From NCBI GenBank assembly GCA_001029695.1, contig CP011211.1, positions 660,001 to 692,000 on the forward strand: 32,000 nucleotides of DNA, given 5' to 3'. The notes under the pieces were generated by a model. The model did no database searches. It saw only the letters and a list, made by a program, of their open reading frames with translations, and was not told the origin of the DNA. Both the position numbers and the translations under genes were made by a program. Origin of the DNA: Candidatus Saccharimonadota bacterium (GTDB lineage Bacteria; Patescibacteriota; Saccharimonadia; Saccharimonadales; Saccharimonadaceae). Within the stretch, counting starts at the first letter, position 1. Each line of letters begins with the position of its first letter. Below are positions 8,028-32,000 of the stretch, piece by piece.

Positions 8028-8085
8028 TAGTTGGGGAAAACATGTGTACAACCTGCGAATACAGCTAGGTACAACCTGGGGACGT

Positions 8086-8285
8086 CTATCCACAGATATA
8101 CTTCGTGGCATTACGACGCATAGCAGTGCCTGTGTACATACCCTACTTATACTCATAACTATCCCCATGAATCCACAGAGTTTATCCACACGATTTATTC
8201 GCTATTTCCATCTGTTAAGAGCATCTTATCCCCGCAATCCACAGTACCTACTATTAACCCAACCAAAGAATAAATAAAAAGAAAG
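8086..8285. other. oriC part 2: DnaA-box cluster, DnaA-trio-like triplets and AT-rich stretch in the dnaA-dnaN spacer
   Basis: Six same-orientation boxes: CTATCCACA 8086-8094, CTATCCCCA 8159-8167, GAATCCACA 8169-8177, perfect TTATCCACA 8182-8190, TTATCCCCG 8226-8234 and CAATCCACA 8235-8243. These are followed by CTACTATTA at 8248-8256, then AT-rich AAAGAATAAATAAAAAGAAA at 8265-8284. Confidence 0.7.
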
Positions 8286-8294
8286 GAACTAATA

Positions 8295-9395
8295 ATGGAA
8301 CTCACTGTTACCCAAGAAAATCTTACTCGAGCACTGACTGCAGTTGGTCGTGTAGCAAGTACAAAGACGCAATTACCAATCCTCAGTAACATCCTTTTAA
8401 GGACAGACGGCACTCGCCTTCTTATTGCTGCAACGAATCTTGAAATAGCCGCAACCCAATTAATTGGAGCAAAGATTGCCAAGCCAGGTTCGATCACGAT
8501 TCCTGCAAAACTTGTAGCTGAGTTCGTCGCCAGTCTTCCAAAAGGCAACGTAGAACTTTTGGTAAAAAACGACCATCTCCACATAAAAGCAGGTACGTAT
8601 AGCTCAGTCATTAATGGTATCGCATCGGATGATTTCCCGGAACTACCAGTGATTGATGAGAAAAAGTCGATCCAGTACAGTATCAGCACGGATGAGTTCA
8701 AACAGGCTGTTTCTCAGACTATTCTTGTCGCAAGCAATGACAGCACTCGTCCAGTACTTACTGGCGTGTATTGGCACTCATTTGAAGGTAATCTTTATCT
8801 TGCAGCCACTGACGGATATAGGTTGACTGAAAAGCGACTTGTCGAGACAAAAAGTGATGTGTCGGCAATTATTCCCGCTTCCTCACTACAAGAAGTACTC
8901 CGTTCGATTACTGACGACGCTACAGAGGTTGAATTACTTTTTGATGAGACACAAGTTCGTTTTCGACTTGGTGAGGCTGAAATTACAAGTCGCCTCATCG
9001 ACGGCAACTTCCCTGATTATCGCCAGCTCATTCCTGCATCATCTGAATCCGTCATAAAGATTGATAAAGCCGAGTTTGTTCGCATTACCAAGATAGCTAG
9101 TCTATTCGCCCGTGACTCAGGTGGCAGTGTCACTGTGACGGCAAATGCTGAGGCCGGCACGCTTGCTATCCATTCGATCGCTTCGCAACTTGGTGAAAAC
9201 ACATCAGAATCAGCTGCCGATGTGAGTGCTGATGGACAAGTAACACTTAACTCACGCTACCTTGCCGACGCACTCAGTGTTACCTCGGGAGATAAAGTAG
9301 TGTTTCGTTTCAGCGGGCGTCTCGCCCCGTGTGTACTCTCGGTAGATAAAAAAGATAATGACTACCAACACATCATCATGCCATTAAAGAGCTAG
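8295..9395 (+). CDS. dnaN: DNA polymerase III beta sliding clamp
   Basis: 366 aa. The typical N-terminus (L....L......V.....T.LPIL.NILL) and three-domain length. Conserved dnaA-dnaN-recF synteny. RBS AAAGGAA at 8282-8288. Confidence 0.95.
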   Translation: MELTVTQENLTRALTAVGRVASTKTQLPILSNILLRTDGTRLLIAATNLEIAATQLIGAKIAKPGSITIPAKLVAEFVASLPKGNVELLVKNDHLHIKAGTYSSVINGIASDDFPELPVIDEKKSIQYSISTDEFKQAVSQTILVASNDSTRPVLTGVYWHSFEGNLYLAATDGYRLTEKRLVETKSDVSAIIPASSLQEVLRSITDDATEVELLFDETQVRFRLGEAEITSRLIDGNFPDYRQLIPASSESVIKIDKAEFVRITKIASLFARDSGGSVTVTANAEAGTLAIHSIASQLGENTSESAADVSADGQVTLNSRYLADALSVTSGDKVVFRFSGRLAPCVLSVDKKDNDYQHIIMPLKS

Positions 9396-9406
9396 CTGTC
9401 TAATCT

Positions 9407-10447
9407 GTGATTATTTCGTCGCTTCAGCTTCAGAATATCAGAACTCATGAGGTGTTTACTCATGAGTTATCACCTTACGTCACGCTTATTACCGGGAGCA
9501 ATGGTAGCGGCAAGACATCAATTATTGAGGCTATGATGATTGCCTTACAAGGCACTTCATTTAAAGGTACTGACACCGAAATACTTCGGCACGAAAGTGA
9601 ATGGTGGCGAATCGACATTAGAAGCGATGATCATGAACGTACTATTAAGTTTGACCCTTCGAAGTCATCAGGTAAGAAGCAATTTAGTATTGATAGTAAA
9701 ATATCGTATCGTTTAGCATCCGCGTATAAATATCCAGTTGTTTTGTTTGAGCCGGATGATCTTCGTCTTCTTCACGGTTCGCCATCGCGAAGACGGCAGT
9801 TTATAGACCGTTTCCTGTCGCAACTTGATTCGGAGTATGCGCAGGCGCTTCGTAAGTACGAAAGGGCTCTAAAGCAGCGTAATGCCCTACTGAAGCGACA
9901 ATTTGTAACGATTGACGATATGTTTGTGTGGGATATTGCAATTGGAGAGTATGGCGCAGAAATTATCGACAAACGCGTGCAGTGTATCGAGGCGCTTAAC
10001 GGCGATATTGCCGATACGTACAACACGATCGCACAATCAAACGATACCGTAAGTATCCACTACTCGCATACCTCGATTGATCATACGAAGCAAAAACTAA
10101 TCAATGAACTTCACGGGCGATTTGAGAGGGATAAACTACTAGGATTTACGAGCGTTGGCCCGCATCGTCATGACGTAGAGTTTCGATTTAACGGAAAATC
10201 TGCCCTGTCGGTCGCTTCTCGTGGTGAGGTGCGAAGTATAGTATTGGCGTTGAAGTTTCTCGAGGTGGATATAATTGAGCGTTTGACTAATCAGCGTCCA
10301 ATCATCTTGCTTGACGATGTTTTTGGTGAGTTAGATGGACAACGTCAGACACATCTTGCGACGAAGTTTAAAAATAAACAAATCATCATGACAAGCGCTT
10401 CAAGCACTGCTCTTCTTGAGGGGGCAATGGTGATTGCACTCGATTAA
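9407..10447 (+). CDS. recF: DNA replication and repair protein RecF
   Basis: 346 aa with a GTG start. SMC-like Walker A ITGSNGSGKTSIIEAM, signature region SRGEVRSIVLALKF and Walker B ILLDDVFGELD. Syntenic after dnaN. Confidence 0.9.
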   Translation: MIISSLQLQNIRTHEVFTHELSPYVTLITGSNGSGKTSIIEAMMIALQGTSFKGTDTEILRHESEWWRIDIRSDDHERTIKFDPSKSSGKKQFSIDSKISYRLASAYKYPVVLFEPDDLRLLHGSPSRRRQFIDRFLSQLDSEYAQALRKYERALKQRNALLKRQFVTIDDMFVWDIAIGEYGAEIIDKRVQCIEALNGDIADTYNTIAQSNDTVSIHYSHTSIDHTKQKLINELHGRFERDKLLGFTSVGPHRHDVEFRFNGKSALSVASRGEVRSIVLALKFLEVDIIERLTNQRPIILLDDVFGELDGQRQTHLATKFKNKQIIMTSASSTALLEGAMVIALD

Positions 10448-10935
10448 TTTATTGTTGGTGAAGTATCGGTTCCCGGGAGAACTGCTGGCTGGTTGATTGT
10501 CTGCAAGACGGATTTTGGTACATCAGGAAAGTCTGGTTGACTTAAGATTGGTCGTGGCGGTGTGCTACGGATAATCCATTTTCCGTCTTTTTTCTCCATT
10601 AGTACGCGAAGGGTGTCTCTACTATCTTCGTCTTTTCCTTGGTACGTTAATGTTGTGCCATACCACTGCCCTTCATCGTAGAGAGCGCCTCTGTTGATGA
10701 TGTAGAGATCAACGAGTGTTGGATATTTTCCGACAAGGACTGTGGAGATTGCCGGAAGCTCGGTTTCGAGCATAGTATCAAGCTCCGCTGTTGTTGGCTT
10801 AGGTTTCTGTTGTGGTTGTTCTACGACAGGAGGTGGCGTAGCCGGCTGGGATTGCAGTGAACCGACAATTGCAATGCCTCCGATGATAACAACGGCAGCG
10901 CATAGTAATATAACTGTAGTTCGATTATTATTCAT
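10444..10935 (-). CDS. Membrane-anchored exported protein, unknown function (last gene of T4SS-like operon)
   Basis: 163 aa. An N-terminal TM helix (TTVILLCAAVVIIGGIAIVGSL), a Pro/Gln-rich linker, then a ~100-aa globular part. Its ATG overlaps the upstream stop (ATGAATAA). No family recognised. Confidence 0.55.
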   Translation of the reverse strand: MNNNRTTVILLCAAVVIIGGIAIVGSLQSQPATPPPVVEQPQQKPKPTTAELDTMLETELPAISTVLVGKYPTLVDLYIINRGALYDEGQWYGTTLTYQGKDEDSRDTLRVLMEKKDGKWIIRSTPPRPILSQPDFPDVPKSVLQTINQPAVLPGTDTSPTIN

Positions 10936-11563
10936 GAGTCACCTCGAGTGGGTTTTTGAATTGTTTAAAGTCAATGGTGTAGTCAGTAGGATTGAAGCCA
11001 AGTTCTCTGATCTTCTGAACTGCAAAATAGCGGTATCGAGGAGAGTCGGTGTCAATAGTAATGATAATATCATCACCATTTGTACGGTAAGCAATCTTGT
11101 AATACGGATCAGTGTACGGGAGTTTTTCTATAATAGGAAAGCGAGATCGAAAATACTGGCCATTCTCTTGCGCCTCAAGACCACCGAAAGTTTCATTATC
11201 CTTGTAGGCTTTTTGATTCTTCTCTGCCCATTTTTTTGCGTCATCTGATTGCGGCGTGAGTGAGACCGCAACTACATTTTGCTTCTTTTTGTCAGTGACA
11301 ACGATTGTTTTTTCTTGCGAGTCAAAGCCAGGCTGCTCGACCTTTATCTTGTAAGATCCAGCAGTGAGATACTGCGTACCGTTACCTATCGTGTTGTTTT
11401 CGAGAGTGATACGAGCACTACTTGGTACGATAGAAAAAACTACTGGAAGTTTGCCTTGGCGAGATAGTGTAATGATAATACTAAAAATACAGATAAGGAG
11501 AAAGATCACTACTGAAGTGACGATAAAGATACGGCGCTTGCTGGAAAAAATCTGATTAAACAT
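10928..11563 (-). CDS. Membrane-anchored protein with PEGA-like beta-sandwich segment
   Basis: 211 aa with an N-terminal TM (IFIVTSVVIFLLICIFSIIITL). The segment VVFSIVPSSARITLENNTIGNGTQYLTAGSYKIKVEQPGFDSQEKTIVV resembles the PEGA domain pattern (from memory, not searched). The start overlaps the upstream stop by 8 nt (ATGTTTAA). Confidence 0.5.
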   Translation of the reverse strand: MFNQIFSSKRRIFIVTSVVIFLLICIFSIIITLSRQGKLPVVFSIVPSSARITLENNTIGNGTQYLTAGSYKIKVEQPGFDSQEKTIVVTDKKKQNVVAVSLTPQSDDAKKWAEKNQKAYKDNETFGGLEAQENGQYFRSRFPIIEKLPYTDPYYKIAYRTNGDDIIITIDTDSPRYRYFAVQKIRELGFNPTDYTIDFKQFKNPLEVTHE

Positions 11564-12845
11564 TTATTACTCCTGACTTCTTACGATACCACCGGAATGA
11601 CCCATCTGTCACGCCCTCTTTACCCGCCATTGGCGCTCGCTCGTCGAGTGATGCCGAGGCAATTTTACTATTAAATCCTTCTATATCACCAACATAAATA
11701 TACGTATGAGTGTCATTTATAGCAACATCACCAGGTAGCCTGTCGCTCGCATCAGTGGCACTGATAGATTCCCAGTTATTACGGAGCCATGCCTCTTGAC
11801 TAATAGTGTTACCTCCCTTCCCTGAGTTGTTATAGGTTGGTTCGGTCTTGCTATCCTGGAGTAGGAGTGAGACGAATCCACCGCAATCAATACCCTTATA
11901 TTTGATACCACCGACGTATCGTTGTTCTGAAGTGGCTTTATTGACCGCGGAGGTGTATTCCGCTCGTGCGTTTATATCGAGACCTTTATGAGTATCCCAC
12001 GCGTAGGCTTTAACTGTCGCTGCGAGATCTCCACCACTAAAGGTATCCCCATCGCACTGCGCACCTGTTGATGATCGTGTTGGATTTGAGACGACTTTGG
12101 CCTTGTCTTTATCGCCGTCAACGGGCGGCTCTGCAAGTGATGAATCGGCCGTACCGCCCGCAAGAGCCGGCGCATCTTTGTATGTGTCGTAGACTTTTTG
12201 AGCATTGCCACCGCGGACGGAACGTACTGCCTCTGGTGAGTCAGCGGAAGCTTCGTAGCCTGGATTTGGCGGGCCGTGCATTGCGACGGCTGCAGCAACT
12301 GGTTCGGTTGTTGACTTCAATGCCTGTAGGGTGTGAGTGTAATTACTGTTTAGCTCTTTCCAAACAAACTCAAGCTGGCCACCGAGATCGGTCATGCCGA
12401 CACCCATCTCTTTCATATGATCTTGAAGTGGTTTTTGTCGTCCAGTAAAGGTCCATTGTACTAGCCCAAACCCAACCCCATTTTCTGGGGTATAGTTAGC
12501 GTCGACGATCTTCCCGCCTTGTCGTACGGCAGGATTTGGTGTTTTGACTCCAGTTTTTTGATCGATTGCTCCGCCAGATTCTTGTGCCATATTTCCGATA
12601 ATTCCTGATGCTTGCGCGAGTGTAAGGCCTTTACGCATAAAGAAGTTTAATATCTGCTCCATAGTGCCATCACCTGCAAGTTGCACGGACCCTGTAGTAT
12701 CTGCTTCAGCACAGGTCGGGTCATAGAACATAATGTCGTTTGCGGAGTAAAATTGCTGATCGATTGTCGCAGCTTGTACTGGCTGGATAATCTCGACAGA
12801 TACGATACCGATAGCTACGATGACGGCAATAACACGCTTAAACAT
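11556..12845 (-). CDS. Secreted two-domain peptidoglycan hydrolase, CwlT-like (phage-tail-lysozyme-like N domain + NlpC/P60-like C domain)
   Basis: I prefer ATG at 12845, giving the signal peptide MFKRVIAVIVAIGIVSVEIIQPVQAA, over the track start at 13007, which runs deep into the upstream gene. The N domain has GIIGNMAQESGG...GVGFGLVQWT (phage tail lysozyme / muramidase-like pattern). The C domain has GIDCGGFVS...HTYIYVGD (Cys/His of NlpC/P60 or CHAP type). Confidence 0.75.
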   Translation of the reverse strand: MFKRVIAVIVAIGIVSVEIIQPVQAATIDQQFYSANDIMFYDPTCAEADTTGSVQLAGDGTMEQILNFFMRKGLTLAQASGIIGNMAQESGGAIDQKTGVKTPNPAVRQGGKIVDANYTPENGVGFGLVQWTFTGRQKPLQDHMKEMGVGMTDLGGQLEFVWKELNSNYTHTLQALKSTTEPVAAAVAMHGPPNPGYEASADSPEAVRSVRGGNAQKVYDTYKDAPALAGGTADSSLAEPPVDGDKDKAKVVSNPTRSSTGAQCDGDTFSGGDLAATVKAYAWDTHKGLDINARAEYTSAVNKATSEQRYVGGIKYKGIDCGGFVSLLLQDSKTEPTYNNSGKGGNTISQEAWLRNNWESISATDASDRLPGDVAINDTHTYIYVGDIEGFNSKIASASLDERAPMAGKEGVTDGSFRWYRKKSGVINV

Positions 12846-15807
12846 CGCGACTCCTATTGCCTGGCTGCGCATTTTTAGCTTTTTGTAGTATTGGCTCAGG
12901 ATTGGTTTCTTTACCAACCTGCCCGTTGTCACTGATGCGACCGCCATCCCATAATTCAAAATGGAGGTGCGGGCCTGTGCTCTGACCATCACTGCCGATT
13001 TTGCCAATCTCTTGGCCGGCCTTTATGGTATCTCCCTGCTTTACGAGAACGCCATCATTGTACATATGGCCGTAAAGGCTATCGACAATCTTTCCGTCAA
13101 CCTGATGACGTATGATGATCCAGTTACCGAAGCCTTCGGCTGGTCCTGCGGCAATTACCTTTCCGTCTCGCGCAGCAAAGATTGGTTTGTTGAGCGAGCC
13201 GCCCGAATGGGTGATATCCACGCCTCGGTGATCAGGTCGAGCAGCAGTTTTGAAGCCACTAGTGATATTTCCATCAGTTGTTGTCGGGTATGACCAGCCA
13301 TCTTCAGTGACGTTACCGGTTGCACCGCTAGCACTCCCTGTTGTTCCGGGATCGGCTTTTTGAGACTTGGATCCGTCAAGCGATTGGTCGACACTGACGT
13401 CCATTGTGTAGATACGGTAGCGCATGTTGAGCGGTTCATTTTCTTTTTTGCGGCACTCTGCTCCGTCGCCAGTATTTTCGTCCTGATTTTCACCCCACCC
13501 AGTTGATCGATTGACACATTCCTTGAGGAATTTAACATAGTTCCAGCCCTTATCGCCGTTGTCTTTTACTACCCCATCTTCGCTTTCGGGGTCGATATTT
13601 CCAGTGGCTGCCATCCAGTTTGCATTTTCAATAGGATCAAGCGCTAACTCCTCTTTTGAGTTGCCGTAGCGAACATTACAAAAAACGTCCGCTTTAATGC
13701 CGAGGCGTAAGTAGTTTACGTCATTACATTGCTGGAAGCGCTGAATCGGTGAAGCTGCAAATAATTTTGGTGCTGCGACAACTGCAAGTGAGGCTGGAAG
13801 TAGATTACCTACACTCATCGCCATCGTTCCAAGACTTGAAGCACTTTGTCGAACGTAAGGGGTGAGACTAAAGGCGATCGACCCAAGGAACGAGTATTGA
13901 TTAGTAATGTCAAGTGGCGTGTCTTTTGCTTGATACCGCTCAACTTCACTGTATGCTTGTGCTACTTTCGCGTTCTCTTGGCTTGCTTCAACCGCCTCTG
14001 TATCATCAAGCGGCTTCATGCCACGCGCCATTGCCATGTCGCCGGTAAGTCCGGCTGTGCCGACAAACGCAGCATCGACTGTGTCCATACCCTCTAGATC
14101 CTTAAAGAGATTGCCGGTGATGATGTCGGCAAGTACCGATTCGAGGTATGGAAGCATGGCACCGATTGCTACGGAGCCTGTTATCATGGCAACTGTCGAC
14201 AGACCGGCTGTTCCTGCGCCCGCGATAATACCAATAGCAAGTGCGCCAAGCCGAACGGCGGGATTTTGAACAAATTTACATTTGTCACTAATCGACTGCG
14301 GGTCGGGGTTTGTTCCGAGAGAGAGTGATAACGCAAGCGCTTGAGCGATACCATCAAAGGTATTTGGTGTACTGTCACCGAGCATAAATCGACTTGCGCG
14401 CATGTCGAGCTTCGGTACATCGTCGTGTGCAGCGAGACGAAATGCTGGTGAATCAAGTCCACTTTTCCCGAAGTCTTTATTTTCAACCATTGGTGGATTA
14501 CTTGCCGTGCCTGGTTCGGTTGCTCGAGACTCATCAATAACCTTCTCTTCTGTATTTGTTTGAGTGATGTTATCCCCAACGAATGACACCATCTCTTCAG
14601 TAGCTTCGTTCGCCTTCATGGCATCGGCTGGTGTCAGGATCATCGTTGTCGCGAATCGTACAGCTTGTTCTTTCTTTTTTACTTTCGAGAGAGCCGATAC
14701 CATGCGGCTCGTATTGTAGATAGTGCATGAGGTGTCGATAACTCCAGTAATCATCGCACCTTTTGCGAGGTTTTGAATTGTCTTACTGCTACCAATCTCA
14801 GCAAGGGCACTGATTCGCTCGCTCGACTGACGAGCTTGTTCAACTTCTTCGCTAGTGAGCGGATTACCTTTGTCATCAGTGTATGTCTTATTTCCGTCTT
14901 CATCAGTTTTGGTTACGATACTACTTGCATTGACACTCGCTTTTTTTTCGACGATAGAATTGACAGATTTTTGCCGCTCTTCGTCAGTGGATCCGTTTAT
15001 TTGAAGGGATTTTCTAGCACCATTTTTTGCGAATACTTTTGCGGCGACTTTATCGGCAAAGCCGATGACTTTTGGATTATATGAAGTGATAAGTGACGAA
15101 CGAAACGCCATATTGTTGAGACTTGCGTTCTTGAGCTCAGCAGCATTGGTTATGTATGTTTTTTCTCCGGACGTTGGATTAGTGAAGGTCATTCGAGTTA
15201 TTTGACCCCGTTTTCCACCTATACCTTTACTCATATCACGGTCGATTTCGATACCTTGGGCTTTAAACTTCTTCACCTGATCATCGTGAAGTGTACTGAA
15301 TCGACACGTAATTTTTACTGCACCGCATGAACCTTTTGTTGTATCTTTTAGTTTTGAGCGCAACAAAACAGCTGATCGCGTGTCAAGCGATCGAAGTTGA
15401 TCATTGAGATCTTGTGTGAATACTTCTTTGAGCTGCACAATGGCGATCGTTGGCGAAAACAACACTGTCAGTGCTGCGCCACCTCCGAAAAGCACTGCTA
15501 TGACAGCAAGGAGAGATGATTTGCCGCGGATTTTTTTAGAGGTAAGAAATTGCCAGCGCTTTTTTCCTGAGTTGGATGACGATGTTTGATTTTGAGGAGT
15601 ATACGGTATCGTCCCCTCGCTCTCGCGTGCGTTGAGCTTGGCGATATTTGCGTTTTCTTGAGCTGGATCGGCTGACTGTGAGTCGTACGTCGAGGCGAGC
15701 TGATTAAACTTCTCTTGTTCCTGCAGTTGGTGACGTAAACCGCGGCCCGCGTCGGTATACGGGTCGTGCTTTTCAGTCGCCTTGTCTTGTAAGTCTAATT
15801 TGCTCAT
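12838..15807 (-). CDS. Giant membrane protein with C-terminal M23 (LytM-type) metallopeptidase, copy B
   Basis: 989 aa. A polar ~100-aa N-terminus, then TM SSLLAVIAVLFGGGAALTVLFSPTIAIV. A long unassigned region is followed by a Gly/Ala-rich hydrophobic stretch, LGALAIGIIAGAGTAGLSTVAMITGSVAIGAML. The C-terminal M23 motifs are HRGVDI and GPHLHFE. Paralog of 18751-21678. Confidence 0.8.
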   Translation of the reverse strand: MSKLDLQDKATEKHDPYTDAGRGLRHQLQEQEKFNQLASTYDSQSADPAQENANIAKLNARESEGTIPYTPQNQTSSSNSGKKRWQFLTSKKIRGKSSLLAVIAVLFGGGAALTVLFSPTIAIVQLKEVFTQDLNDQLRSLDTRSAVLLRSKLKDTTKGSCGAVKITCRFSTLHDDQVKKFKAQGIEIDRDMSKGIGGKRGQITRMTFTNPTSGEKTYITNAAELKNASLNNMAFRSSLITSYNPKVIGFADKVAAKVFAKNGARKSLQINGSTDEERQKSVNSIVEKKASVNASSIVTKTDEDGNKTYTDDKGNPLTSEEVEQARQSSERISALAEIGSSKTIQNLAKGAMITGVIDTSCTIYNTSRMVSALSKVKKKEQAVRFATTMILTPADAMKANEATEEMVSFVGDNITQTNTEEKVIDESRATEPGTASNPPMVENKDFGKSGLDSPAFRLAAHDDVPKLDMRASRFMLGDSTPNTFDGIAQALALSLSLGTNPDPQSISDKCKFVQNPAVRLGALAIGIIAGAGTAGLSTVAMITGSVAIGAMLPYLESVLADIITGNLFKDLEGMDTVDAAFVGTAGLTGDMAMARGMKPLDDTEAVEASQENAKVAQAYSEVERYQAKDTPLDITNQYSFLGSIAFSLTPYVRQSASSLGTMAMSVGNLLPASLAVVAAPKLFAASPIQRFQQCNDVNYLRLGIKADVFCNVRYGNSKEELALDPIENANWMAATGNIDPESEDGVVKDNGDKGWNYVKFLKECVNRSTGWGENQDENTGDGAECRKKENEPLNMRYRIYTMDVSVDQSLDGSKSQKADPGTTGSASGATGNVTEDGWSYPTTTDGNITSGFKTAARPDHRGVDITHSGGSLNKPIFAARDGKVIAAGPAEGFGNWIIIRHQVDGKIVDSLYGHMYNDGVLVKQGDTIKAGQEIGKIGSDGQSTGPHLHFELWDGGRISDNGQVGKETNPEPILQKAKNAQPGNRSRDV

Positions 15808-15884
15808 CCAGGTAGCTCTCTATCAGATATAGATTACCACAAAATTGAGTTTTAGTACATAGTATGTAATAAATAATATACAAA

Positions 15885-17504
15885 TCAATAACTAAAATTG
15901 ATCGTAACGGTATTTAGATCTATACCCTTCTTCTCAAGCATGTCGGTTACTCTCGACTTTGCTTGATTGAGAGCGGTTTCATCTAATGCACCCGAATTTT
16001 TTCGTACTGTTTTATTTAGTGTTACTTTTAGTCGTATTCGTATATTTGATCCTACGAAGTCCATATCGCTAATATCGGTTGATTCAGAAAATGTTACCGG
16101 AAGAAGGTCTATTATTCGTTTATTGCCTGTGCTATTTACTTCACTATTGATTTTGTAGGCGTAGACGCGACTACCTCCATCTTTTACTGATGATAGTGCA
16201 AAAACTGATTCCCCGTAAACACTAACTCTTTTTATATTAATGTGTTCTGAGTGAAAACGACTTACCGCTCCATCGTTAGTTTCATTGATGGCGAATACTG
16301 TATTATCTTTTACGTAATACGTATCTACCCCCGTGTCTACAGAGTCAATATTCTGTTCAAAGAGATGAGCTTTTATTTGTGTGTCGTTTTGAGACTCTAG
16401 CTTATAGAGTCTTTTCCCGTCAAGCGCTAGTATAGTATTGTTTTTTGTAACAAAGAGCTGGTCGACGGATATATCTGATTGAATGCTATATGTATTTTTT
16501 TGAGATGGATTTTCTGTCGAAAAATCTATCATCGTAAGCTTACCTTCAGGCAGATCAACTTTCTTACTACTTGATGAGCCCTCACTACTTTCATCAGAGT
16601 GTGGAGTGAGACTTGATCCTCCCGTGTAGCACGCCGCCTCGGTATTGTTTAGAGTGCATATTGTTGATTTTTTTACGCTACTATAGTCGCTAGGTGCGGT
16701 CATTTTTTTATATTCTACTGAATTATATTCTACTGAAGGCATACCGTAATACACTGCGCCGTCCCAGGAAATAAAAAGGAAGTTACGATTTTCAGGGTGT
16801 ATTTTATCGGTCACTATTTTCGCAAAACGAAGGGTTGACTCATCGATATTTTCTGGCGCAGGAAAGTGCTTTAGTCCGCCTGCCACACTGATGTAGAAGA
16901 GAGGATCTTCTGCGGGTGCATCCGTATCGAACACTGGCGCAATTCCTATAGCTCCGTCTCGATATGGTGTCATGAACTTAGTTGTAGTTGCTGATTTTGC
17001 TGCTATTTTATTCGTCCATATGTTATTACCTGATAGAGCGCTATAGGAATATAACTGAGTTGGTGTTTTGCAATTGTAAGATAATAACTGGTCACTTGAG
17101 TAGTCATAGACTGAACAATCAGAAATCGGATTCATGTACGCAACCTTATCTGCATTTCTATCTTTCTGAAAAGTAAAATCTACAGTGGGGATAGTAAAGA
17201 GCGCTGTATTAATTGAACGACTTGATTGGTAGTTTCCAAGTGAGGCATGAAGGACTTTAGAATCACGCGGTATTATTGCAAAATCTCCGACTAGTAGTGC
17301 TCGGGATGTTTCAAATATATAATCTTTTGAAGCCGTCACTTCAAGTTGACTATTTGTAATATTATCTTCATTTTTTACCGATATTTGTACGAGAGAAAAA
17401 GTAAACCATAGCCATACAACGAGGCATACTAGGGAGATACTCACTCCCAACCCTACCCAGAACCGGATTGACTTTTTGGTAATGAAATTAAGTATTTGAT
17501 TCAT
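15885..17504 (-). CDS. Bitopic membrane protein, large beta-rich ectodomain, unknown function
   Basis: I prefer ATG at 17504 (MNQILNFITKKSIRFWVGLGVSISLVCLVVWLWF...), preceded by AGGAG overlapping the upstream stop. The track start at 17606 would overlap the upstream hydrolase by ~90 nt. 539 aa, one TM, no family recognised. It is noticeably more AT-rich than its neighbours. Confidence 0.6.
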   Translation of the reverse strand: MNQILNFITKKSIRFWVGLGVSISLVCLVVWLWFTFSLVQISVKNEDNITNSQLEVTASKDYIFETSRALLVGDFAIIPRDSKVLHASLGNYQSSRSINTALFTIPTVDFTFQKDRNADKVAYMNPISDCSVYDYSSDQLLSYNCKTPTQLYSYSALSGNNIWTNKIAAKSATTTKFMTPYRDGAIGIAPVFDTDAPAEDPLFYISVAGGLKHFPAPENIDESTLRFAKIVTDKIHPENRNFLFISWDGAVYYGMPSVEYNSVEYKKMTAPSDYSSVKKSTICTLNNTEAACYTGGSSLTPHSDESSEGSSSSKKVDLPEGKLTMIDFSTENPSQKNTYSIQSDISVDQLFVTKNNTILALDGKRLYKLESQNDTQIKAHLFEQNIDSVDTGVDTYYVKDNTVFAINETNDGAVSRFHSEHINIKRVSVYGESVFALSSVKDGGSRVYAYKINSEVNSTGNKRIIDLLPVTFSESTDISDMDFVGSNIRIRLKVTLNKTVRKNSGALDETALNQAKSRVTDMLEKKGIDLNTVTINFSY

Positions 17505-17512
17505 AACAGCTC

Positions 17513-18766
17513 CTATAGACTTAAATGGATATGATCTTGATGCCCTGAAAGTGTATCTTCTCCGTAGTAGCCTACGCAACTTACTGGAGCTCCACCGCCC
17601 ATACATTCATATCCGGATGGCGTAGGGCTATATATTAGTTTGTTTGTTCCTAGAGAGGCGGCATTATCATAGAGGAATTTATATAACTTCTCCCCCTCTG
17701 GTGTACCTGCATTGTATGGGAAGTCTATTGCAAGCCCTTTGCCATGCTCACCTTTATCACAGAAGTGGTCTTTATTAAGTGCATAGACTTTAGCGACTAC
17801 ACCACTTTGTTCGGCGACTGCGATTAAGACCTGCACTGTTTTCTTCTCAATACCGACGTGATCCCCGCTCGGACATGCACTTACTTGTCCGCATCTTTCT
17901 ATATCCTCCATTTCAGGGGCTTCATTCATTAAGAGGATTTTACCTTCGTTCTTGAGTTTTTTAACTCGTTCGATTAATTCGGCACATTCACCATCGGGGA
18001 GACTTCCGTCTTTGCTTGGCTCTGCATCTCCCTTAGTTTTACATTGATTCGCCTCTTTGCCGCCTGTAGACGTTGACGCCTCTGGATTGGGAGCGGGATC
18101 TTTTCCGGTATATTCTCTGTAGATGTTTTCAGCCATAGTGTCGCGACCAAGATTCTCGCCAGTAGCCGTATTTGATCTTTCAAATAAGTCATGGAAGATA
18201 TTCGCCGCTTGGCCTGGTGAAGTTGCTGCTTTGAGAGGTTCCATAACTTGGCTTTCGGAGGTTTCTGTAATCTCATACCAAATATAGTCCAGCTGATAGT
18301 CTAGGCACCTCCAATCCTTTCCTTCTGCTGCAGCTTTTGCAACCATATTATCTGCACGACTATAACACCATTGGACGACCCCTTTACAATCAATCCAGTT
18401 AACTGCATCGGGCATAAATGCAGATTCTTTCTCCATATTACCCATGATCCCCGCTACGGCTTCATCGGATAGGCCTTTATTTTTAAAGTATGACCAGATT
18501 TGTTTCTTGTTCGCTTCAGAATTACTTACCCCAGAAGCATACCCTTGTTCGCCGCACCCTGCACCAGAACCACTAAATGGTGTACCAGAACCGCCTGATT
18601 TTGAGTCAGAAGTGGTACAGTCGTCAGAATACAGTACATGATTTTGAGCACGAAACATCGCATCACGAGCGGATACTTGAGCCGGAGATGCGACAAACAC
18701 ATAAATGAAAGCTATGAGTATATAGCTTAGTTTGTAGCGTTTTTCTATCTTTAAGAACTTGGGCAT
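17513..18766 (-). CDS. Secreted two-domain peptidoglycan hydrolase (phage-tail-lysozyme-like N domain + LAS/M15-type zinc peptidase C domain)
   Basis: 417 aa with signal/anchor YILIAFIYVFVASPAQVSA. The N domain has GIMGNMEKESAF...KGVVQWC. The C domain has EHGKGLAID, matching the canonical HxxGxAxD of M15/LAS peptidases, and a terminal HQDHIH (HxH). The start overlaps the upstream stop by 16 nt. Confidence 0.7.
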   Translation of the reverse strand: MPKFLKIEKRYKLSYILIAFIYVFVASPAQVSARDAMFRAQNHVLYSDDCTTSDSKSGGSGTPFSGSGAGCGEQGYASGVSNSEANKKQIWSYFKNKGLSDEAVAGIMGNMEKESAFMPDAVNWIDCKGVVQWCYSRADNMVAKAAAEGKDWRCLDYQLDYIWYEITETSESQVMEPLKAATSPGQAANIFHDLFERSNTATGENLGRDTMAENIYREYTGKDPAPNPEASTSTGGKEANQCKTKGDAEPSKDGSLPDGECAELIERVKKLKNEGKILLMNEAPEMEDIERCGQVSACPSGDHVGIEKKTVQVLIAVAEQSGVVAKVYALNKDHFCDKGEHGKGLAIDFPYNAGTPEGEKLYKFLYDNAASLGTNKLIYSPTPSGYECMGGGAPVSCVGYYGEDTLSGHQDHIHLSL

Positions 18767-21678
18767 GAGTACTCCACTCCATGTTCTTTCAGTACAGGGA
18801 TCGGATCATCCGAGCCTGACACGGTAACGGCCTTGCCTGCCGGATATATCTCAAAATGTAAGTGGTTACCAAATGAATTTCCGGTGTTTCCAACTTTGCC
18901 GATTTCTTGACCTTTTGAAACCTCTTGGCCGGTAGTGACTGACGGAGTGGTGACCATGTGGCCAAATCGGAAGTCTTTACCACTTCCGTCTGTAGCTGTT
19001 GCGACGACGACATTTCCATATCCACTGTTTCCGTTTCCGTTTTCGCCCATTCCAGCAAATATAATCTTCATACTTGTTGGCGCAACAATTGGGGTGCCTT
19101 CTGGAGCGGCCATGTCGATACCCTGATGACCAGATCCTTTCCACGGCTGTGAGCATGTTGCTTGAGTCGGTATTACCCAGTCGCCTGTATTTTTCGTTGC
19201 TGGTCCAGCGGGCGCGGCAGTATCACTCCAGCAATCCGTAGAGGTCGTCTCTTCTGCGGCGGGGAATTGTCGTTCACACCAGTTGAAGTAAAATGCGTAA
19301 TTGTCCATATTCTTGTTATCTTCAAGACACTTAGATCCTTCGTACCAATATTGATCGGATTCTTTTCCGTCTTCAACTGGTTTAGATGTAGTGCCAAGCG
19401 GATCTGTACGGTGATCGGTGCAATATTTTCGATATTTTGTGTATTCACTCATTTCCTCGGTCTTCTCACTATCGAGGCCTCTTGGCTTGCCCGACTCATC
19501 TATGTCATTTGATGAAATAAGCTCCTGAATCACCGTGTCGATAACATCTTCTTCACCACTCGCCTGCCTGTCTGCCATGCTGAGGAAATTGTCTGTTGAG
19601 TAACCTATCATCCGACCAGACCAATCGCAGCCCGCTCCGATCGACTCCATATCTGGATCACCGCAGTTTTTCATTCTACCTTCTGCCGCACCCGGATTTG
19701 CGGTCATTTGAGAGGGCTGACTAAAGAGTGCATTTGCTGTATTTGTCGTAAACGACAATGGTGTAGCAAGTACGGCAAGTGCATTTGCGGCATGCTCAAA
19801 TACACTACGTGTTTGAGCATTGTATGGATTGAGCGATGTAGCGATTGTACCTGCAAATGAGTACTGGTTGTAGATATCAAATGGTGTATCTTTTGCTTCG
19901 TACTTAGCAAGTTCAATCTGACGATTATATTCAGGATCGGTTGCTGTAATAAATTTCTTTACTTGATTCACTCCTTTGTCTCCACTGCTAACGGGTTTCC
20001 CGCCTGAGCCTAAAGTGCTATTTGAGAGCATGAGACCTATACCTGCGGCAAGCGCATTACCTGCGTCGACACCTTTGAGATCTGAGGTTAGATTTGCCTC
20101 TTCTATCATTTTTAGTGCTGGATCAGCGAGCTGATCAATAACTAAGCTAGCAATTTCGTCACCTGCTAGATAAAGCCCTGCAATTAACGTCGCGCAGAGT
20201 GCTGCAGCCCATGGACCTGCAAAACATGTAGCCGTCGACGCCATAGCTGCATAGCTATTTGCAATACACGCATCGCGAATATTATCTTTGCCTAGATATC
20301 CCTGTAGTGTATTGACGAGCTGACTACCGGCCACTGCGTATGCTGTTTTTCCTGTTGTGTACTGTTTTGTGAAGTCTTCAAGGCCCTGAAAGTCTCCATA
20401 GAGTGCTGCTTTTAGGCCTTGAGAATCCGTTGCACCAAGGTTGTATTTAGGATTTGGTTTTCCATCTACTTCTTTTTTATTGTCGTACCAGGTTAGACGA
20501 TCTCCTAGATTTTCGACAACTTCTGGCTCTATATTACCTTGATCTTGAATCTGAGAAGCAGCTTGAACAAACGGATAAGCAAATTTAACTAACTGATAGA
20601 TCCATTCTGCTTTTACGAGTGCTGTTGTAACTCGTATTGAATTATATCCTGTGCATGCAATCGAGAGTGCGGCGCTTGCCGCCCCGCCACCTTTAATGGT
20701 TTTCTTTAAACCTGGTGTTTTTTTCGCTTTCTCTATTGCTGCTTGAACGCGCTTAATTCCACCTTTTTTATCCTCGCCAACATCGATATTTTCATTAAAG
20801 GATTTATCAATAGCTGCTTTCCGCTTTTCTTTATCCTTATCATTTGAAGATTTTAATACGTTGCTCTTTTTTAACTTAAACTTATCAAGAACACTATTGA
20901 ATTTGGCGTCTTGGAAGAATTTCGATCTGACATTGAATACATGACCGGCGGTACGTCTTCCTTCGATATTGAAATCAGCGTGAGCATTAAATACCTTTCC
21001 GTTATCGGCTACTTTTCCATCGGGGTATTTAATCGATTTTACTTTACTACGTCCAGTTTTTTCGTCTTTTACGGTATCAACCTCAAAGCCCATGTTTTTA
21101 AACTTATCGAGTTGACGCTGCCCCATTGTTTTAAACTTACACTTAATCTTCGACCCCGCACAAGGAGTATCATTTTTTGAGGTGCTAAGAATATTACCCA
21201 TATATGCACGCCGCATAACTCCATTTGTTCGTGCAGAGTCGGAGCCGTCATTTGTAACAGCTTTTTCTATCGCAACAAGAAGAGCTGCAGGTGATAATAG
21301 AATTGTCATTCCACCAAATGCAGCAAGGACAAATCCAGTAATTCCAGTTGATGGTCCAATTTTTTTGAAACCTTTTTTTAGTTTTGCTAACCGGCCAGCT
21401 GGCTGTGCTGACTCCCCTTTTTTGTAGTTAAGAGAGTTTTGACCGCCAGATTCTTCTTGGTCTTTGGTGTTTTTTATATCAGCATCAGGTTCATCGGCAT
21501 TATAGTTTGATTGAATTTTGTCTCCGTGAGTGTCTATTTGCTCATCGTCGAGTTCTTGTGAGTTAGTGTGTCGATTGAATTGACTGTCGTATTTTTTTTG
21601 ACCAGCACTTAGACTATCCTCCGCATTGCCGGCTTGGTTTTCGCGCTCGAGAAGGTCGTTTGCTGTTGATTTCACCAT
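18751..21678 (-). CDS. Giant membrane protein with C-terminal M23 (LytM-type) metallopeptidase, copy A
   Basis: 975 aa with the same architecture as 12838-15807. A polar N-terminus, then TM GITGFVLAAFGGMTILLSPAALLVAI. Shared motifs include CAGSKIKCKFKTMGQRQLDKFKNMGFEVD and YEAKDTPFDIYNQYSFAGTIATSLNPY. The M23 motifs are HQGIDM and GNHLHFE. Confidence 0.8.
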   Translation of the reverse strand: MVKSTANDLLERENQAGNAEDSLSAGQKKYDSQFNRHTNSQELDDEQIDTHGDKIQSNYNADEPDADIKNTKDQEESGGQNSLNYKKGESAQPAGRLAKLKKGFKKIGPSTGITGFVLAAFGGMTILLSPAALLVAIEKAVTNDGSDSARTNGVMRRAYMGNILSTSKNDTPCAGSKIKCKFKTMGQRQLDKFKNMGFEVDTVKDEKTGRSKVKSIKYPDGKVADNGKVFNAHADFNIEGRRTAGHVFNVRSKFFQDAKFNSVLDKFKLKKSNVLKSSNDKDKEKRKAAIDKSFNENIDVGEDKKGGIKRVQAAIEKAKKTPGLKKTIKGGGAASAALSIACTGYNSIRVTTALVKAEWIYQLVKFAYPFVQAASQIQDQGNIEPEVVENLGDRLTWYDNKKEVDGKPNPKYNLGATDSQGLKAALYGDFQGLEDFTKQYTTGKTAYAVAGSQLVNTLQGYLGKDNIRDACIANSYAAMASTATCFAGPWAAALCATLIAGLYLAGDEIASLVIDQLADPALKMIEEANLTSDLKGVDAGNALAAGIGLMLSNSTLGSGGKPVSSGDKGVNQVKKFITATDPEYNRQIELAKYEAKDTPFDIYNQYSFAGTIATSLNPYNAQTRSVFEHAANALAVLATPLSFTTNTANALFSQPSQMTANPGAAEGRMKNCGDPDMESIGAGCDWSGRMIGYSTDNFLSMADRQASGEEDVIDTVIQELISSNDIDESGKPRGLDSEKTEEMSEYTKYRKYCTDHRTDPLGTTSKPVEDGKESDQYWYEGSKCLEDNKNMDNYAFYFNWCERQFPAAEETTSTDCWSDTAAPAGPATKNTGDWVIPTQATCSQPWKGSGHQGIDMAAPEGTPIVAPTSMKIIFAGMGENGNGNSGYGNVVVATATDGSGKDFRFGHMVTTPSVTTGQEVSKGQEIGKVGNTGNSFGNHLHFEIYPAGKAVTVSGSDDPIPVLKEHGVEYSCPSS

Positions 21679-21699: not shown

Positions 21700-23598
21700 T
21701 TAAAGTTGCATCTCCTGAGCAACTGCTTCTTGAGCTGCGCGCTGACGTGCGAGCTCTTGCATTCGTTTTTCTTCCTCTTCTTGCATCTGTTGAACAGGGT
21801 TCGTAGTAACAAGCTGATGCTCGGTGCGACTTGCCACAATCTGAACATGAACGTGGTTTGCGCCTGCAAAGAAAAGCCCTTGTCCTACTGGGAAGTTGGC
21901 GAGACGCTTTCGCTCTTCGTCGGTTAGCTTAAAGACGTCGGCGAGCACATCGACAGCACTCGGCGATTGCTTCAAGAGGAGTTGCATCGAGGAGTTGGCG
22001 ACGATCGCACGTCCCATCTTACTTGCCATAAAGTCTTCGACGTCCTGGCTGATAGTCGTCACCCCAAGATAGTACTTACGAGCACGCTTCGCGAGTGAGA
22101 ATAGGAAGTTTGCCGAGTCTTCGTATTTCATAAGCTGCCAGGCCTCGTCCACGATAAGCATACGTTTCTTTAGGTGGCTTCTCGTGACGTTCCAGATGTG
22201 CGAGAGTACGATATACATTGCGACGGGACGGAGCTCATCTTCGAGGTCGCGAATATTAAATACAACCATCTGATTATTAATATCGATATTTGACTGCATC
22301 GAGAAGATACCTGCGAATGTACCGGTGGTGTATTTACGGAGGCGCTGAGCGAGTGATGGGCCGGAGCCTTCCATGTGCACGAGTGTATCGTAAAGATCGA
22401 TCATAGTTGGAGGTAGTGAATTGTGCGTTAGTGGATCACTTGTGATGCCTGATCGAGCATACGTGTCTATCAGTGCCTGGTCGAGGTCGGCTTCTTCTGC
22501 TGGAGTAAGGCCCGTTGCAGTCGTAATGCCACCAGATGCAACATGCGCTCCACCGAGCATGAGTCGAAGTAGACCGTGAAGGGTGACGAGATTTGCTCGC
22601 AGCGCATCGTCGGCTTCGTCGGTGTCGACAACTCTTGGAAGATCAAATGGATTGATACGAACGTCACTGTTGAGGCTGAGTCGAATGTAGCTTCCACCAA
22701 CCGCGTCAGATAGTTTTTGGTACTCATTTTCTGGGTCGATGATGATCACGTCCGCACCCATCATCATACTGCGAATTGCTTCAAGCTTTACGGTAAACGA
22801 CTTACCGGAACCGGACTTTGCAAATACTACCATGTTGGCATTTTCCAGAGAATAGCGATCAAAGATGATCAGGCCGTTGTTGTGCATGTTGATGCCGTAG
22901 AGGATACCTTTTTCTTGAGTAAGATCGGCGCTCGTGAACGGGAAGCTGGTACTGATTGCACCCGTATTCATATTTCGACGGATCTGTAGCTGATCGGTCA
23001 TCTGAGGAACACTTGAGTTTATGCCTTGTTCTTGCTGAGATGAGGCAACCTTACTAAAGATGAGCTGTTGCCCAAAGATAGTTTCGATCTTGTGCTGTAC
23101 AAAATTCAGCTCATCCATACTGTCGGCGTATAGAGTGATATAAAGACCGTAGCGGAAGAAACGTTCTGAACCTACCTGGATCTCGTCTCGTAGTTCCTCG
23201 GCATCATTGAGCGCTGCTTCAAGTCCCGGGTCACGAGTACGGCCCTTTTCTTCGTTAATAGCCATAGTGGCCTGCATTTGGGTTACCTTTTTGCGCAGGT
23301 TCTTGAGGACGATCTCGCTTTCGACTGGGTAGAAGAACATACTGACATCAAGTACTTCATCGATGTTGATAACTGAGCTGAGCCAGCCTGTATAGATCTG
23401 ACGAGGATATGCGTACACATAGAGAGTACGACCGTACTTTGTGCCTAGTCGGAAGTAACTGGCATGGATCTCGAGACTGCTTGGCGCTACGAGGTCACGA
23501 AGTGTTGTGATACCTTTTTGAAATGCTTGCTCAACTTCAAATTGTTCACGTGCGCGTTGTTTTGCGGCGATATCGACTGCATCGGGTTTTTTAGCCAT
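21700..23598 (-). CDS. virB4: VirB4-family T4SS ATPase (Gram-positive ConE/PrgJ/TcpF type)
   Basis: 632 aa. Walker A VVFAKSGSGKSFT, Walker B KRMLIVDEAWQLM and a downstream TTISQDVEDF motif. The N-terminal region YGRTLYVYAYPRQIYTGWLSSV is typical of monoderm VirB4s. A strong AAGGAGGAG RBS lies upstream. Confidence 0.9.
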   Translation of the reverse strand: MAKKPDAVDIAAKQRAREQFEVEQAFQKGITTLRDLVAPSSLEIHASYFRLGTKYGRTLYVYAYPRQIYTGWLSSVINIDEVLDVSMFFYPVESEIVLKNLRKKVTQMQATMAINEEKGRTRDPGLEAALNDAEELRDEIQVGSERFFRYGLYITLYADSMDELNFVQHKIETIFGQQLIFSKVASSQQEQGINSSVPQMTDQLQIRRNMNTGAISTSFPFTSADLTQEKGILYGINMHNNGLIIFDRYSLENANMVVFAKSGSGKSFTVKLEAIRSMMMGADVIIIDPENEYQKLSDAVGGSYIRLSLNSDVRINPFDLPRVVDTDEADDALRANLVTLHGLLRLMLGGAHVASGGITTATGLTPAEEADLDQALIDTYARSGITSDPLTHNSLPPTMIDLYDTLVHMEGSGPSLAQRLRKYTTGTFAGIFSMQSNIDINNQMVVFNIRDLEDELRPVAMYIVLSHIWNVTRSHLKKRMLIVDEAWQLMKYEDSANFLFSLAKRARKYYLGVTTISQDVEDFMASKMGRAIVANSSMQLLLKQSPSAVDVLADVFKLTDEERKRLANFPVGQGLFFAGANHVHVQIVASRTEHQLVTTNPVQQMQEEEEKRMQELARQRAAQEAVAQEMQL

Positions 23599-30875: not shown

Positions 30876-30953
30876 AGTTATGTACAGAATACCATTAGTA
30901 CTTATATAAGGACAAGCATAATACACGCGCACCTCTAGGTCTACGCATGATGC

Positions 30954-31790: not shown

Positions 31791-32000
31791 TTACTTCGGT
31801 TCAATAAATGTACGTTGAGATGAGATATATAGGATGTCGTTGTTCTGATAGAAGCTGTCTTGCGCTTCCCGCTCTCGATCAGTCATGGTGCAATCTTCAA
31901 TATTTGCGTATGAGCCATCAACTGAACACATCATTGTGTAGGCGCGAAAATTATTCATCATTTCACTCTCTTCGAGACACTTCTTGCCTGTATACCAGTC
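31791..32000 (-). CDS. Hypothetical protein, C-terminal part (ORF open to the window edge)
   Basis: The minus frame is open from 32000 to TAA at 31791-31793. It translates to DWYTGKKCLEESEMMNNFRAYTMMCSVDGSYANIEDCTMTDREREAQDSFYQNNDILYISSQRTFIEPK. It is not in the ORF track (no start in the window) and matches no family I recognise. Confidence 0.4.
   Translation of the reverse strand, partial: DWYTGKKCLEESEMMNNFRAYTMMCSVDGSYANIEDCTMTDREREAQDSFYQNNDILYISSQRTFIEPK

Follow-up and report, generated by a model that had tools for sequence, protein, structure and literature searches.

The closest described relative of the locus treated here is found in Southlakia epibionticum ML1, whose type IV secretion system (T4SS) genes SEML1_0004 to 0008 were essential by transposon sequencing (Tn-seq; Wang et al. 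2023, PMC10633639), including SEML1_0005, the counterpart of a 211-aa PEGA-domain protein (PMC10633639). The T4SS, which S. epibionticum needs for epibiotic growth, its position near the replication origin, and the essential peptidase and lysozyme that follow virB4 have already been published, and the peptidase and lysozyme homologues immediately downstream of virB4 were noted as likely VirB1 substitutes (PMC10633639, PMC12102498). The VirB1 models of the Patescibacteria survey were the CD419 and TrsG profiles (Quinonero-Coronel et al. 2025, PMC12102498). We analysed a stretch of 32,000 nucleotides (nt) from a Candidatus Saccharimonadota bacterium (contig CP011211.1, positions 660,001 to 692,000; hereafter the window), in which virB4 is followed by two consecutive sets of predicted cell-wall-cleaving genes, cassette (or module) A and cassette B, each beginning with a very large membrane protein, the giant, and a smaller hydrolase. 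As in the window, the S. epibionticum T4SS lies beside dnaA-dnaN-recF with PrgI, TrsD and VirB4, and virB4 is followed by a protein of >1000 aa that ends in a peptidase, a hydrolase combining a phage-tail lysozyme with a cysteine-proteinase domain (ECOD 'Cysteine proteinases'), a 211-aa PEGA protein and a small protein. It differs in having one module instead of two, in its giant, which ends in a Hedgehog/DD-peptidase (LAS) domain and not in M23, and in an extra glucosaminidase domain on the hydrolase. We consider it probable, with real room for doubt, that the window carries two ancient paralogous peptidoglycan-breaching modules of a chromosomal Saccharibacteria T4SS, with a division of labour between them. 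The two papers (PMC10633639, PMC12102498) make no mention of the duplication, of A and B orthogroups or of the modular C-terminal domain, and in the literature searched we found no report of the tandem duplication, of the four-gene unit, of A/B orthogroups with unequal rates, or of a giant-body family with exchangeable tails.

Likenesses to other systems are more distant. PrgK of plasmid pCF10 from Enterococcus faecalis (PMC11323569) resembles module B in being membrane-anchored, extracellular and encoded in a T4SS operon, and its domain set, LytM (M23), SLT and CHAP (a Cys/His peptidase), is the sum of those of giant B and hydrolase B. However, PrgK is a single chain of 871 aa, in contrast to the two intact M23 sites of the window its LytM site is metal-free and degenerate, its muramidase has an SLT fold instead of being of the gp13 type, and it has neither the helical body of ~700 aa nor a duplication. 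CwlT/CD419-type hydrolases are two-domain enzymes made of a muramidase and an NlpC/P60 DL-endopeptidase. Presumably, CwlT of ICEBs1 and the CD419 type share with hydrolase B an export signal, a lysozyme-like domain, a C-terminal Cys/His peptidase, and a position downstream of virB4 and a large membrane protein. Hydrolase B is unlike CwlT in that its lysozyme is of the phi29 gp13 type and its Cys/His domain scores under the NlpC/P60 threshold. The window proteins gave no SLT or CHAP match in Pfam, and homology to the VirB1-like group (PrgK/TraG/CwlT) was not found; the likeness of the cassettes to these proteins is best taken as one of architecture and operon position rather than of common descent. 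Phage phi29 gp13 has the same lysozyme-like domain together with M23 (PDB 3csq, 3csr), as does the hydrolase/giant pair; the label MT3, used below for a peptidase type, is taken from motif 3 in the tape-measure protein of mycobacteriophage TM4 (PMC11667670); and PHROG matches of the cassette domains fall on tape-measure, tail and endolysin families. The lytic domains of gp13 and of tape-measure proteins, however, belong to virion proteins acting from outside at infection, whereas the window copies are chromosomal and T4SS-linked, with no phage structural genes near.

Both giants are built alike. Giant A (975 aa; 18751..21678, minus strand) consists of an N-terminal basic tail, a transmembrane (TM) helix at residues ~113-135, an alpha-helical body of ~700 aa and a C-terminal M23 domain (residues 850-951; 18826..19131, minus strand), and a hydrophobic Gly/Ala-rich segment is apparent from hydropathy inside the body at residues ~486-557. 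Giant B (989 aa; 12838..15807, minus strand) has the same architecture, with the TM segment at ~95-124, a hydrophobic stretch at 518-552 and the M23 domain at residues 860-957 (12937-13230, minus strand). The M23 assignment, proposed in the earlier note from the motifs, is well founded: the two domains score 80.8 (A) and 87.8 (B) bits against the Pfam model PF01551 (gathering cut-off 28.7), and the motifs are complete in giant A (H851-x3-D855, H907, H939-x-H941) as in giant B (H860-x3-D864, H914, H947-x-H949). We take the LytM counterparts of these residues to be H210, D214, H260, H291 and H293. The AlphaFold2 (AF2) model of giant A (predicted local distance difference test score, pLDDT, 77.5; predicted template modelling score, pTM, 0.71) is nearly all alpha-helical from residue ~130 to ~810 and then turns into the beta-rich M23 domain, for which Foldseek found matches to LytM, lysostaphin and StM23 (target TM-scores 0.74-0.84; for LytM 2b0p/4zyb 0.80-0.84, with a root-mean-square deviation of 1.7-1.8). 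From the sequence, the N-terminus would be inside the cell and the body and M23 domain outside. The similarity of the giants reaches far beyond M23, ~949 residues being aligned with 23% identity (E 2e-46), which goes against the refutation that the earlier note had named, a likeness restricted to M23. PHROGs and NCBIfam match only the catalytic domains of the cassette proteins, and the weak NCBIfam matches (NlpD, MepM, DipM, EnvC) are all far below the cut-offs. Phage internal and ejectosome proteins were also considered as relatives of the giant body and rejected; in the long alignments the TM-score is ~0.12 and only M23 superposes, which we did not count as homology.

The hydrolases have signal-peptide-like N-termini and start within the end of the giant gene, the ATG of hydrolase A (417 aa; 17513..18766, minus strand) overlapping it by 16 nt and that of hydrolase B (429 aa; 11556..12845, minus strand) by 8 nt; here the coordinates, lengths and overlaps given earlier were confirmed. 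For hydrolase B the ATG at 12845 was preferred to an upstream TTG because its orthologues are 404-460 aa long and a 99%-identical NCBI protein has 429 aa. The phage-tail-lysozyme-like domain claimed for both proteins is likewise upheld, with 112.6 bits for hydrolase A (residues 86-218; 18113-18511, minus strand) and 93.5 bits for hydrolase B (residues ~61-222; 12180-12665, minus strand) against Pfam Phage_lysozyme2 (PF18013; cut-off 28.2). The catalytic glutamate is kept in both. In hydrolase A it is E115, the counterpart of catalytic E45 in the alignment with phi29 gp13 (PDB 3csr, E 1e-5); in hydrolase B it is E90, which belongs to the same GNMxxES motif and does not vary among 38 orthologues. 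The AF2 model of hydrolase B (pLDDT 81.5) also matched 3csr in Foldseek (E 5e-4, target TM-score 0.68). Between the two hydrolases the signal region and lysozyme half align (E 6e-11) and the second domains differ. That of hydrolase A (residues ~300-417; 17516-17869, minus strand) had been called LAS/M15-like; the zinc ligands are indeed kept, and the assignment can be refined, since residues 334-417 are similar to the pneumococcal L,D-endopeptidase VldE (PDB 9flh, phmmer E 2e-5) and H341, D348, H412 and H414 align with its H301, D308, H373 and H375, of which H301, D308 and H375 are Zn-1 ligands and H373 is the histidine of the HxH motif (PMC11667670). This similarity and the retained ligands identify the domain as a LAS (M15-like, clan MD) zinc L,D-endopeptidase of the VldE/MT3 type. 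The VldE family PF26571 gave no match to hydrolase A in the local Pfam even at E<=10, and precomputed matches exist on the orthologues in two related loci (L006 and L007). The second domain of hydrolase B (residues ~268-425; 11571-12044, minus strand) has a cysteine, C321 (GIDCGGF), and a histidine, H380, which are invariant in the 38 orthologues. These residues are suggestive of a papain-like Cys/His hydrolase, NlpC/P60-like rather than a demonstrated member of that family. Hydrolase B had no match to PDB sequences at E<=1; neither hydrolase matched an NCBIfam family at E<=0.01, a threshold at which Phage_lysozyme2 was the only Pfam family reported for hydrolase B.

The genes of both cassettes stand in a minus-strand T4SS array, in the order polytopic 705-aa membrane protein, PrgI (VirB3-like), TrsD-like protein, VirB4 and then the cassette genes, which converges on recF. 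The VirB4 ATPase (632 aa; 21700..23598, minus strand) matches NCBIfam conju_CD1110 with 379.9 bits (cut-off 325) and Pfam P-loop_TraG, and its gene is directly upstream of cassette A, which ties the module to the T4SS. Candidatus Saccharibacteria bacterium GW2011_GWC2_44_17 has proteins identical to the window DnaA (AKM80590.1) and VirB4 (AKM80601.1), and giant B shares a 90%-identity cluster with AKM80597.1 (989 aa). The earlier note had placed the cassettes in a conjugative T4SS, and this has to be abandoned. A monoderm-type VirB4 with TrsD and PrgI near dnaA, and a giant and lysozyme pair right after virB4, are what characterizes the chromosomal T4SS of the Patescibacteria clade, and the window system is this known oriC-proximal T4SS and not a conjugative one. 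Surveys of Patescibacteria T4SSs do not report a relaxase or coupling protein nearby (PMC10633639, PMC12102498), and we found no member of relaxase or coupling-protein families among the scanned T4SS-cluster proteins of the window, where genes below 6 kb were only partly scanned. The operon that contains VirB4, TrsD and PrgI also contains the cassettes, whose overlapping genes share 8-16 nt, and a promoter and terminator scan gave no enrichment over shuffled sequences (25 vs 22.4 and 15 vs 12.6) and nothing pointing to separate transcription of the modules.

Whether the duplication is general was seen from 23 related loci, taken from genome and metagenome collections and annotated with hidden Markov models (HMMs) built from the window genes. 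Both modules are present in 11 other distinct loci, eight of them complete from virB4 to recF and three cut by a contig end. The complete two-module loci are L001, L002, L005, L007 (with its near-duplicate L014), L008, L010, L013 and L015, plus L018; L009, L011 and L012 have parts of both modules. The giant follows virB4 directly in all surveyed loci. The claim that each cassette has the same gene order holds for giant and hydrolase and fails for the third gene, the 539-aa protein of cassette A and the 211-aa protein of cassette B being non-homologous. In L002, L008, L010 and L013, cassette A also has genes for a PEGA protein and a small bitopic protein besides those of the giant and the lysozyme-hydrolase, and all four are paralogous to their counterparts in cassette B; the duplicated, ancestral unit was therefore one of four genes. 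The last two genes of cassette A are replaced by a protein of ~470-570 aa in the window and in L001, L005, L006, L007, L009, L011, L015 and L018. The A HMM gives giants at the A position 704-1016 bits and the B HMM gives them 80-323, and those at the B position show the reverse (in the window, giant A has 982 vs 159 bits and giant B 1166 on the B vs 261 on the A model). Such a clean separation into A and B orthogroups means that the duplication is older than the divergence of all these genomes, and the earlier view of a tandem, old and maintained duplication is thus well supported, as is that of a strong divergence in DNA, where the cassettes have no detectable similarity (longest common word 13 nt; best blastn match 44 bp at 79.5%). 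A midpoint-rooted neighbour-joining tree of 192 bodies also splits A from B; we relied on the HMM scores instead because the deep branches of the tree are short and the distances saturated.

Since then the two copies have behaved differently. Over 12 genomes the mean identity of the giant body is 42.6% for B and 30.6% for A, and B is the higher in 63 of 66 genome pairs, which are mutually non-independent. Among 192 representatives, 50 of the 54 B-type giants have M23, whereas the tails of the A-type giants comprise M23 (27), NlpC-like (11) and LAS-like (5) domains and also Amidase_3, a BSP peptidase or none. The partner of the lysozyme domain in hydrolase A also varies. The window shares a VldE-like domain with L001, L006 and L007; an M23 domain stands N-terminally in L008 and L010 and C-terminally in L015; L002 and L013 have an NlpC-like domain; and L018 has SGNH with Amidase_2. 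In hydrolase B the lysozyme and Cys/His core is retained throughout, sometimes with an inserted SGNH lipase or beta-lactamase-type domain. Module B is the conserved, ancestral-like set and module A the fast-evolving copy with repeated exchange of catalytic domains. The family as a whole is large, since a giant-body profile from which M23 had been removed found 805 representative clusters (50% identity) at E<=1e-3 and 441 at E<=1e-30, with tails of the M23, LAS-like, NlpC-like, VanY, Amidase_3, BSP peptidase and Alginate_lyase2 types, two endonuclease/exonuclease/phosphatase (EEP) domains with M23, or none, and with several unassigned singletons.

Some related giants (P0114, P0186 and L016:9848-14419) end with enzymes that do not act on peptidoglycan. 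One related giant carries Alginate_lyase2 (E 7e-39), and others of 1523-1575 aa have two EEP domains before M23. The alginate lyase and EEP giants suggest targets beyond peptidoglycan, for instance polysaccharide, lipid or nucleic acid.

In the reading that we favour, the giant would be fixed by its N-terminal TM anchor and would carry, at the end of a large helical ectodomain, an M23 endopeptidase of predicted activity, and the hydrolase would be a Sec-exported, bifunctional enzyme with a gp13-type muramidase-like domain and a peptidase. The start codon of the hydrolase over the stop codon of the giant is probably a sign of translational coupling, and the bitopic accessory proteins would complete each module. 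Jointly, the enzymes would cut glycan strands as well as peptide stems or cross-links, which would make room locally for the channel or pilus of the T4SS to pass. For module B the substrate would be a constant one, in the simplest case the bacterium's own wall; module A could be tuned to one that varies, for which the actinobacterial host's wall or envelope is the simplest candidate. A conserved B beside a variable A fits this division, and so does the fact that most of the catalytic domain types are those that phages carry on tail tips or tape-measure proteins to cut the target wall from outside. The idea put forward earlier, that the cassettes act on two walls or two peptidoglycan chemotypes, is compatible with the pattern of a conserved B and a faster, domain-swapping A.

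Several observations weigh against this reading, or against parts of it. The helical body of giant A has no structural match, including to known T4SS components, in Foldseek searches of PDB and BFVD, so its role can be inferred from position only, and the central hydrophobic stretch was modelled with low confidence. For the C-terminal domain of hydrolase B, called NlpC/P60-like in the earlier note, the invariant cysteine and histidine stand and the family score does not reach the threshold: the match to Pfam NLPC_P60 (PF00877) has 16.8 bits, under the cut-off of 23 (E 0.0068), a profile of seven sequences found in PDB only Spr/MepS (E 0.3-0.4, over the Cys motif alone), and the papain-like matches in Foldseek (TecA, Tae4, the PCAT1 C39 domain) are all non-significant (E>1). 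The locus survey was seeded with giant-derived patterns and is not an unbiased sample. Moreover, some lineages have a single module. In L006 it is of the A type; in L016/L021 and L019 the giants are intermediate and nearer to B; in L026 the giant lacks a catalytic domain and is followed by an SLT_2 and M23 hydrolase; and S. epibionticum, too, has only one module. A strict division into one module per wall therefore cannot be universal. Finally, the alginate lyase, tandem EEP and BSP peptidase domains of some giants would suit an effector role as well.

Such a role defines the main rival, in which the giants would be polymorphic effectors delivered by the T4SS, the body serving for trafficking or translocation, the tail being a warhead directed to the host envelope, and the small proteins encoded downstream acting as chaperones or immunity proteins. 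A conserved N-terminal body with interchangeable enzymatic tails of at least seven recognisable types has the architecture of polymorphic toxins; one body with many alternative enzymes, or with none (12 of the 192 representatives), is a hallmark of such toxins and of 'evolved' secretion-system components, and phage-type lytic domains, such as those of tape-measure proteins and tail-tip lysins, normally work on the target wall from outside. Nevertheless, a TM helix with a basic flank on the cytoplasmic side anchors the giants at the N-terminus, their gene is fixed right after virB4 in every locus, and the S. epibionticum counterpart is essential. No cognate immunity gene co-varying with the giant tail was found, the hydrolase, PEGA and small/long3A (539-aa-type) families being constant whatever the tail; in this the PEGA and small genes are unlike cognate immunity genes. 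On balance we regard the effector explanation as unlikely.

Between an effector and a fixed wall-cutting enzyme one could imagine a giant that is itself the host-penetrating element of the T4SS: a helical protein of ~1000 aa with a Gly-rich hydrophobic hairpin and an exchangeable enzymatic tip, which would be driven through or along the secretion system and would insert into the host envelope in the manner of phage tape-measure or ejection proteins. Module A would then be a determinant of host range. We hold this to be quite unlikely; if it were true, giant A and hydrolase A would decide which host walls (by peptidoglycan chemotype, capsule or lipid) the epibiont can breach.

It could also be that the two modules are redundant duplicates, kept near the replication origin for dosage or robustness. 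They do share their core chemistries, M23 and a gp13-type lysozyme, and several lineages live with a single module. However, an identity of ~23%, the lack of DNA similarity, distinct orthogroups across 12 genomes, unequal rates and different domain repertoires form a pattern of long-term subfunctionalisation rather than redundancy, which makes this explanation improbable. Still less probable is that the enzymes are housekeeping autolysins for growth, division or budding which merely adjoin the T4SS genes. M23, NlpC/P60-like and LAS enzymes are common in division and remodelling, and the weak NCBIfam matches are to proteins such as NlpD, MepM, DipM and EnvC, but those matches are all far below the cut-offs, synteny with virB4 is strict in all surveyed loci, and the genes overlap or are closely spaced in one direction. 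The order virB4, large membrane protein, bifunctional hydrolase is also, we presume, that of Gram-positive conjugation operons (conE-conG-cwlT in ICEBs1). A remnant of a prophage tail or ejection module, as might be thought because phage proteins of the tape-measure, tail-tip and internal kinds bear lysozyme, M23 and MT3 domains, is hardly credible, given the absence of other phage genes, PHROG matches confined to the catalytic domains, a locus fixed between virB4 and recF across the lineage, and TM-scores of ~0.12 to phage internal proteins with superposition of M23 alone.

The accessory genes differ between the two cassettes. The 539-aa bitopic protein of cassette A ('long3A'; 15885..17504, minus strand), which occupies the position of the PEGA and small genes in other copies of cassette A, has no Pfam match above threshold; L001, L006 and L007 each have an orthologue (E 1e-34 to 2e-62). 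That it might be a fused and diverged PEGA-small pair was considered and rejected (BLASTP negative; hhalign probabilities 5.6% and 0.3%). In cassette B the third gene encodes a bitopic PEGA-domain protein of 211 aa (10928..11563, minus strand; Pfam PEGA 24.7 bits, cut-off 20.8); every B cassette has an orthologue of it, and some A cassettes have a paralogue. The fourth gene encodes a bitopic protein of 163 aa (10444..10935, minus strand). No B cassette lacks it, and its paralogues in cassette A were recognised by BLASTP in L002 and L008 and by HMM in L010 and L013. In three loci an additional gene of 153-174 aa lies between giant A and hydrolase A (L005:5252-5776, L006:5352-5813, L008:6848-7342; mutual E 1e-9 to 1e-10); it has no Pfam match and is absent from the window. 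At the other border of the array a third paralogue of the giant body is cut by the window edge (31791..32000, minus strand; last 69 codons, BLASTP to residues 778-815 of giant A, E 7e-7). It ends without a catalytic domain after the body, and it lies upstream of the T4SS array, past a divergently oriented gene for a 222-aa membrane protein; the equivalent open reading frame (ORF) in L002, 6-656, matches the giant-body HMM.

The remaining neighbours are those of a replication origin, with dnaA at 6642-8027, dnaN at 8295-9395 and recF at 9407-10447, all on the plus strand. The 163-aa gene (minus strand) and recF (plus strand) are convergent and overlap by 4 nt (window 10444-10447), which leaves no space for a terminator between them. 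An ORF of 85 aa without Pfam annotation lies between dnaA and dnaN (window 8020-8277, plus strand), and ORFs of 83-90 aa occupy the same position in L005, L007 and L008. Within the T4SS array, window 29463-30932 (minus strand) encodes a predicted exported alpha/beta-hydrolase with a Pro/Thr-rich linker (BD-FAE, Abhydrolase_3 and Peptidase_S9 matches); at the equivalent position in another genome (context of P0017) there is a 1000-aa protein with BD-FAE and BSP peptidase domains. The alpha/beta-hydrolase may be a further envelope-modifying enzyme, e.g. a deacetylase or esterase. Among the other contigs, L027 contains a gene whose product has exactly the sequence of Ca. Mycosynbacter amalyticus hydrolase B (GII36_00030) and has a complete B module, upstream of which are a 974-aa Glyco_hydro_3 and Phage_lysozyme2 hydrolase (L027:1230-4154) and, before it, a 1059-aa protein with a weak giant-body match (17 bits); L027 could represent a cultivable organism with a two-module locus. 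Saccharibacteria are also naturally transformable. Public records label some contigs with the exact Saccharibacteria layout as 'Chloroflexi bacterium' or 'Candidatus Nomurabacteria bacterium' (L001, SEAL01000004.1; P0221/P0324), and these are probably mis-binned or mis-classified metagenome-assembled genomes.

No T4SS before that of the ultra-small, parasitic Saccharibacteria had been shown to be essential for the cell that carries it, and this one must cross two Gram-positive-type walls. Its wall-cutting part can now be described as a defined four-gene module around a large, previously unnamed protein family of about 800 clusters, and many environmental Saccharibacteria retain two ancient copies of this module. 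Even if the idea of two walls is wrong, the parts list of this T4SS is refined. The contrast between a conserved copy and one that shuffles its domains, non-peptidoglycan enzymes included, provides concrete candidates for host specificity in epibiotic Patescibacteria, and the pattern of the modules may bear on how Saccharibacteria breach the wall of their host.

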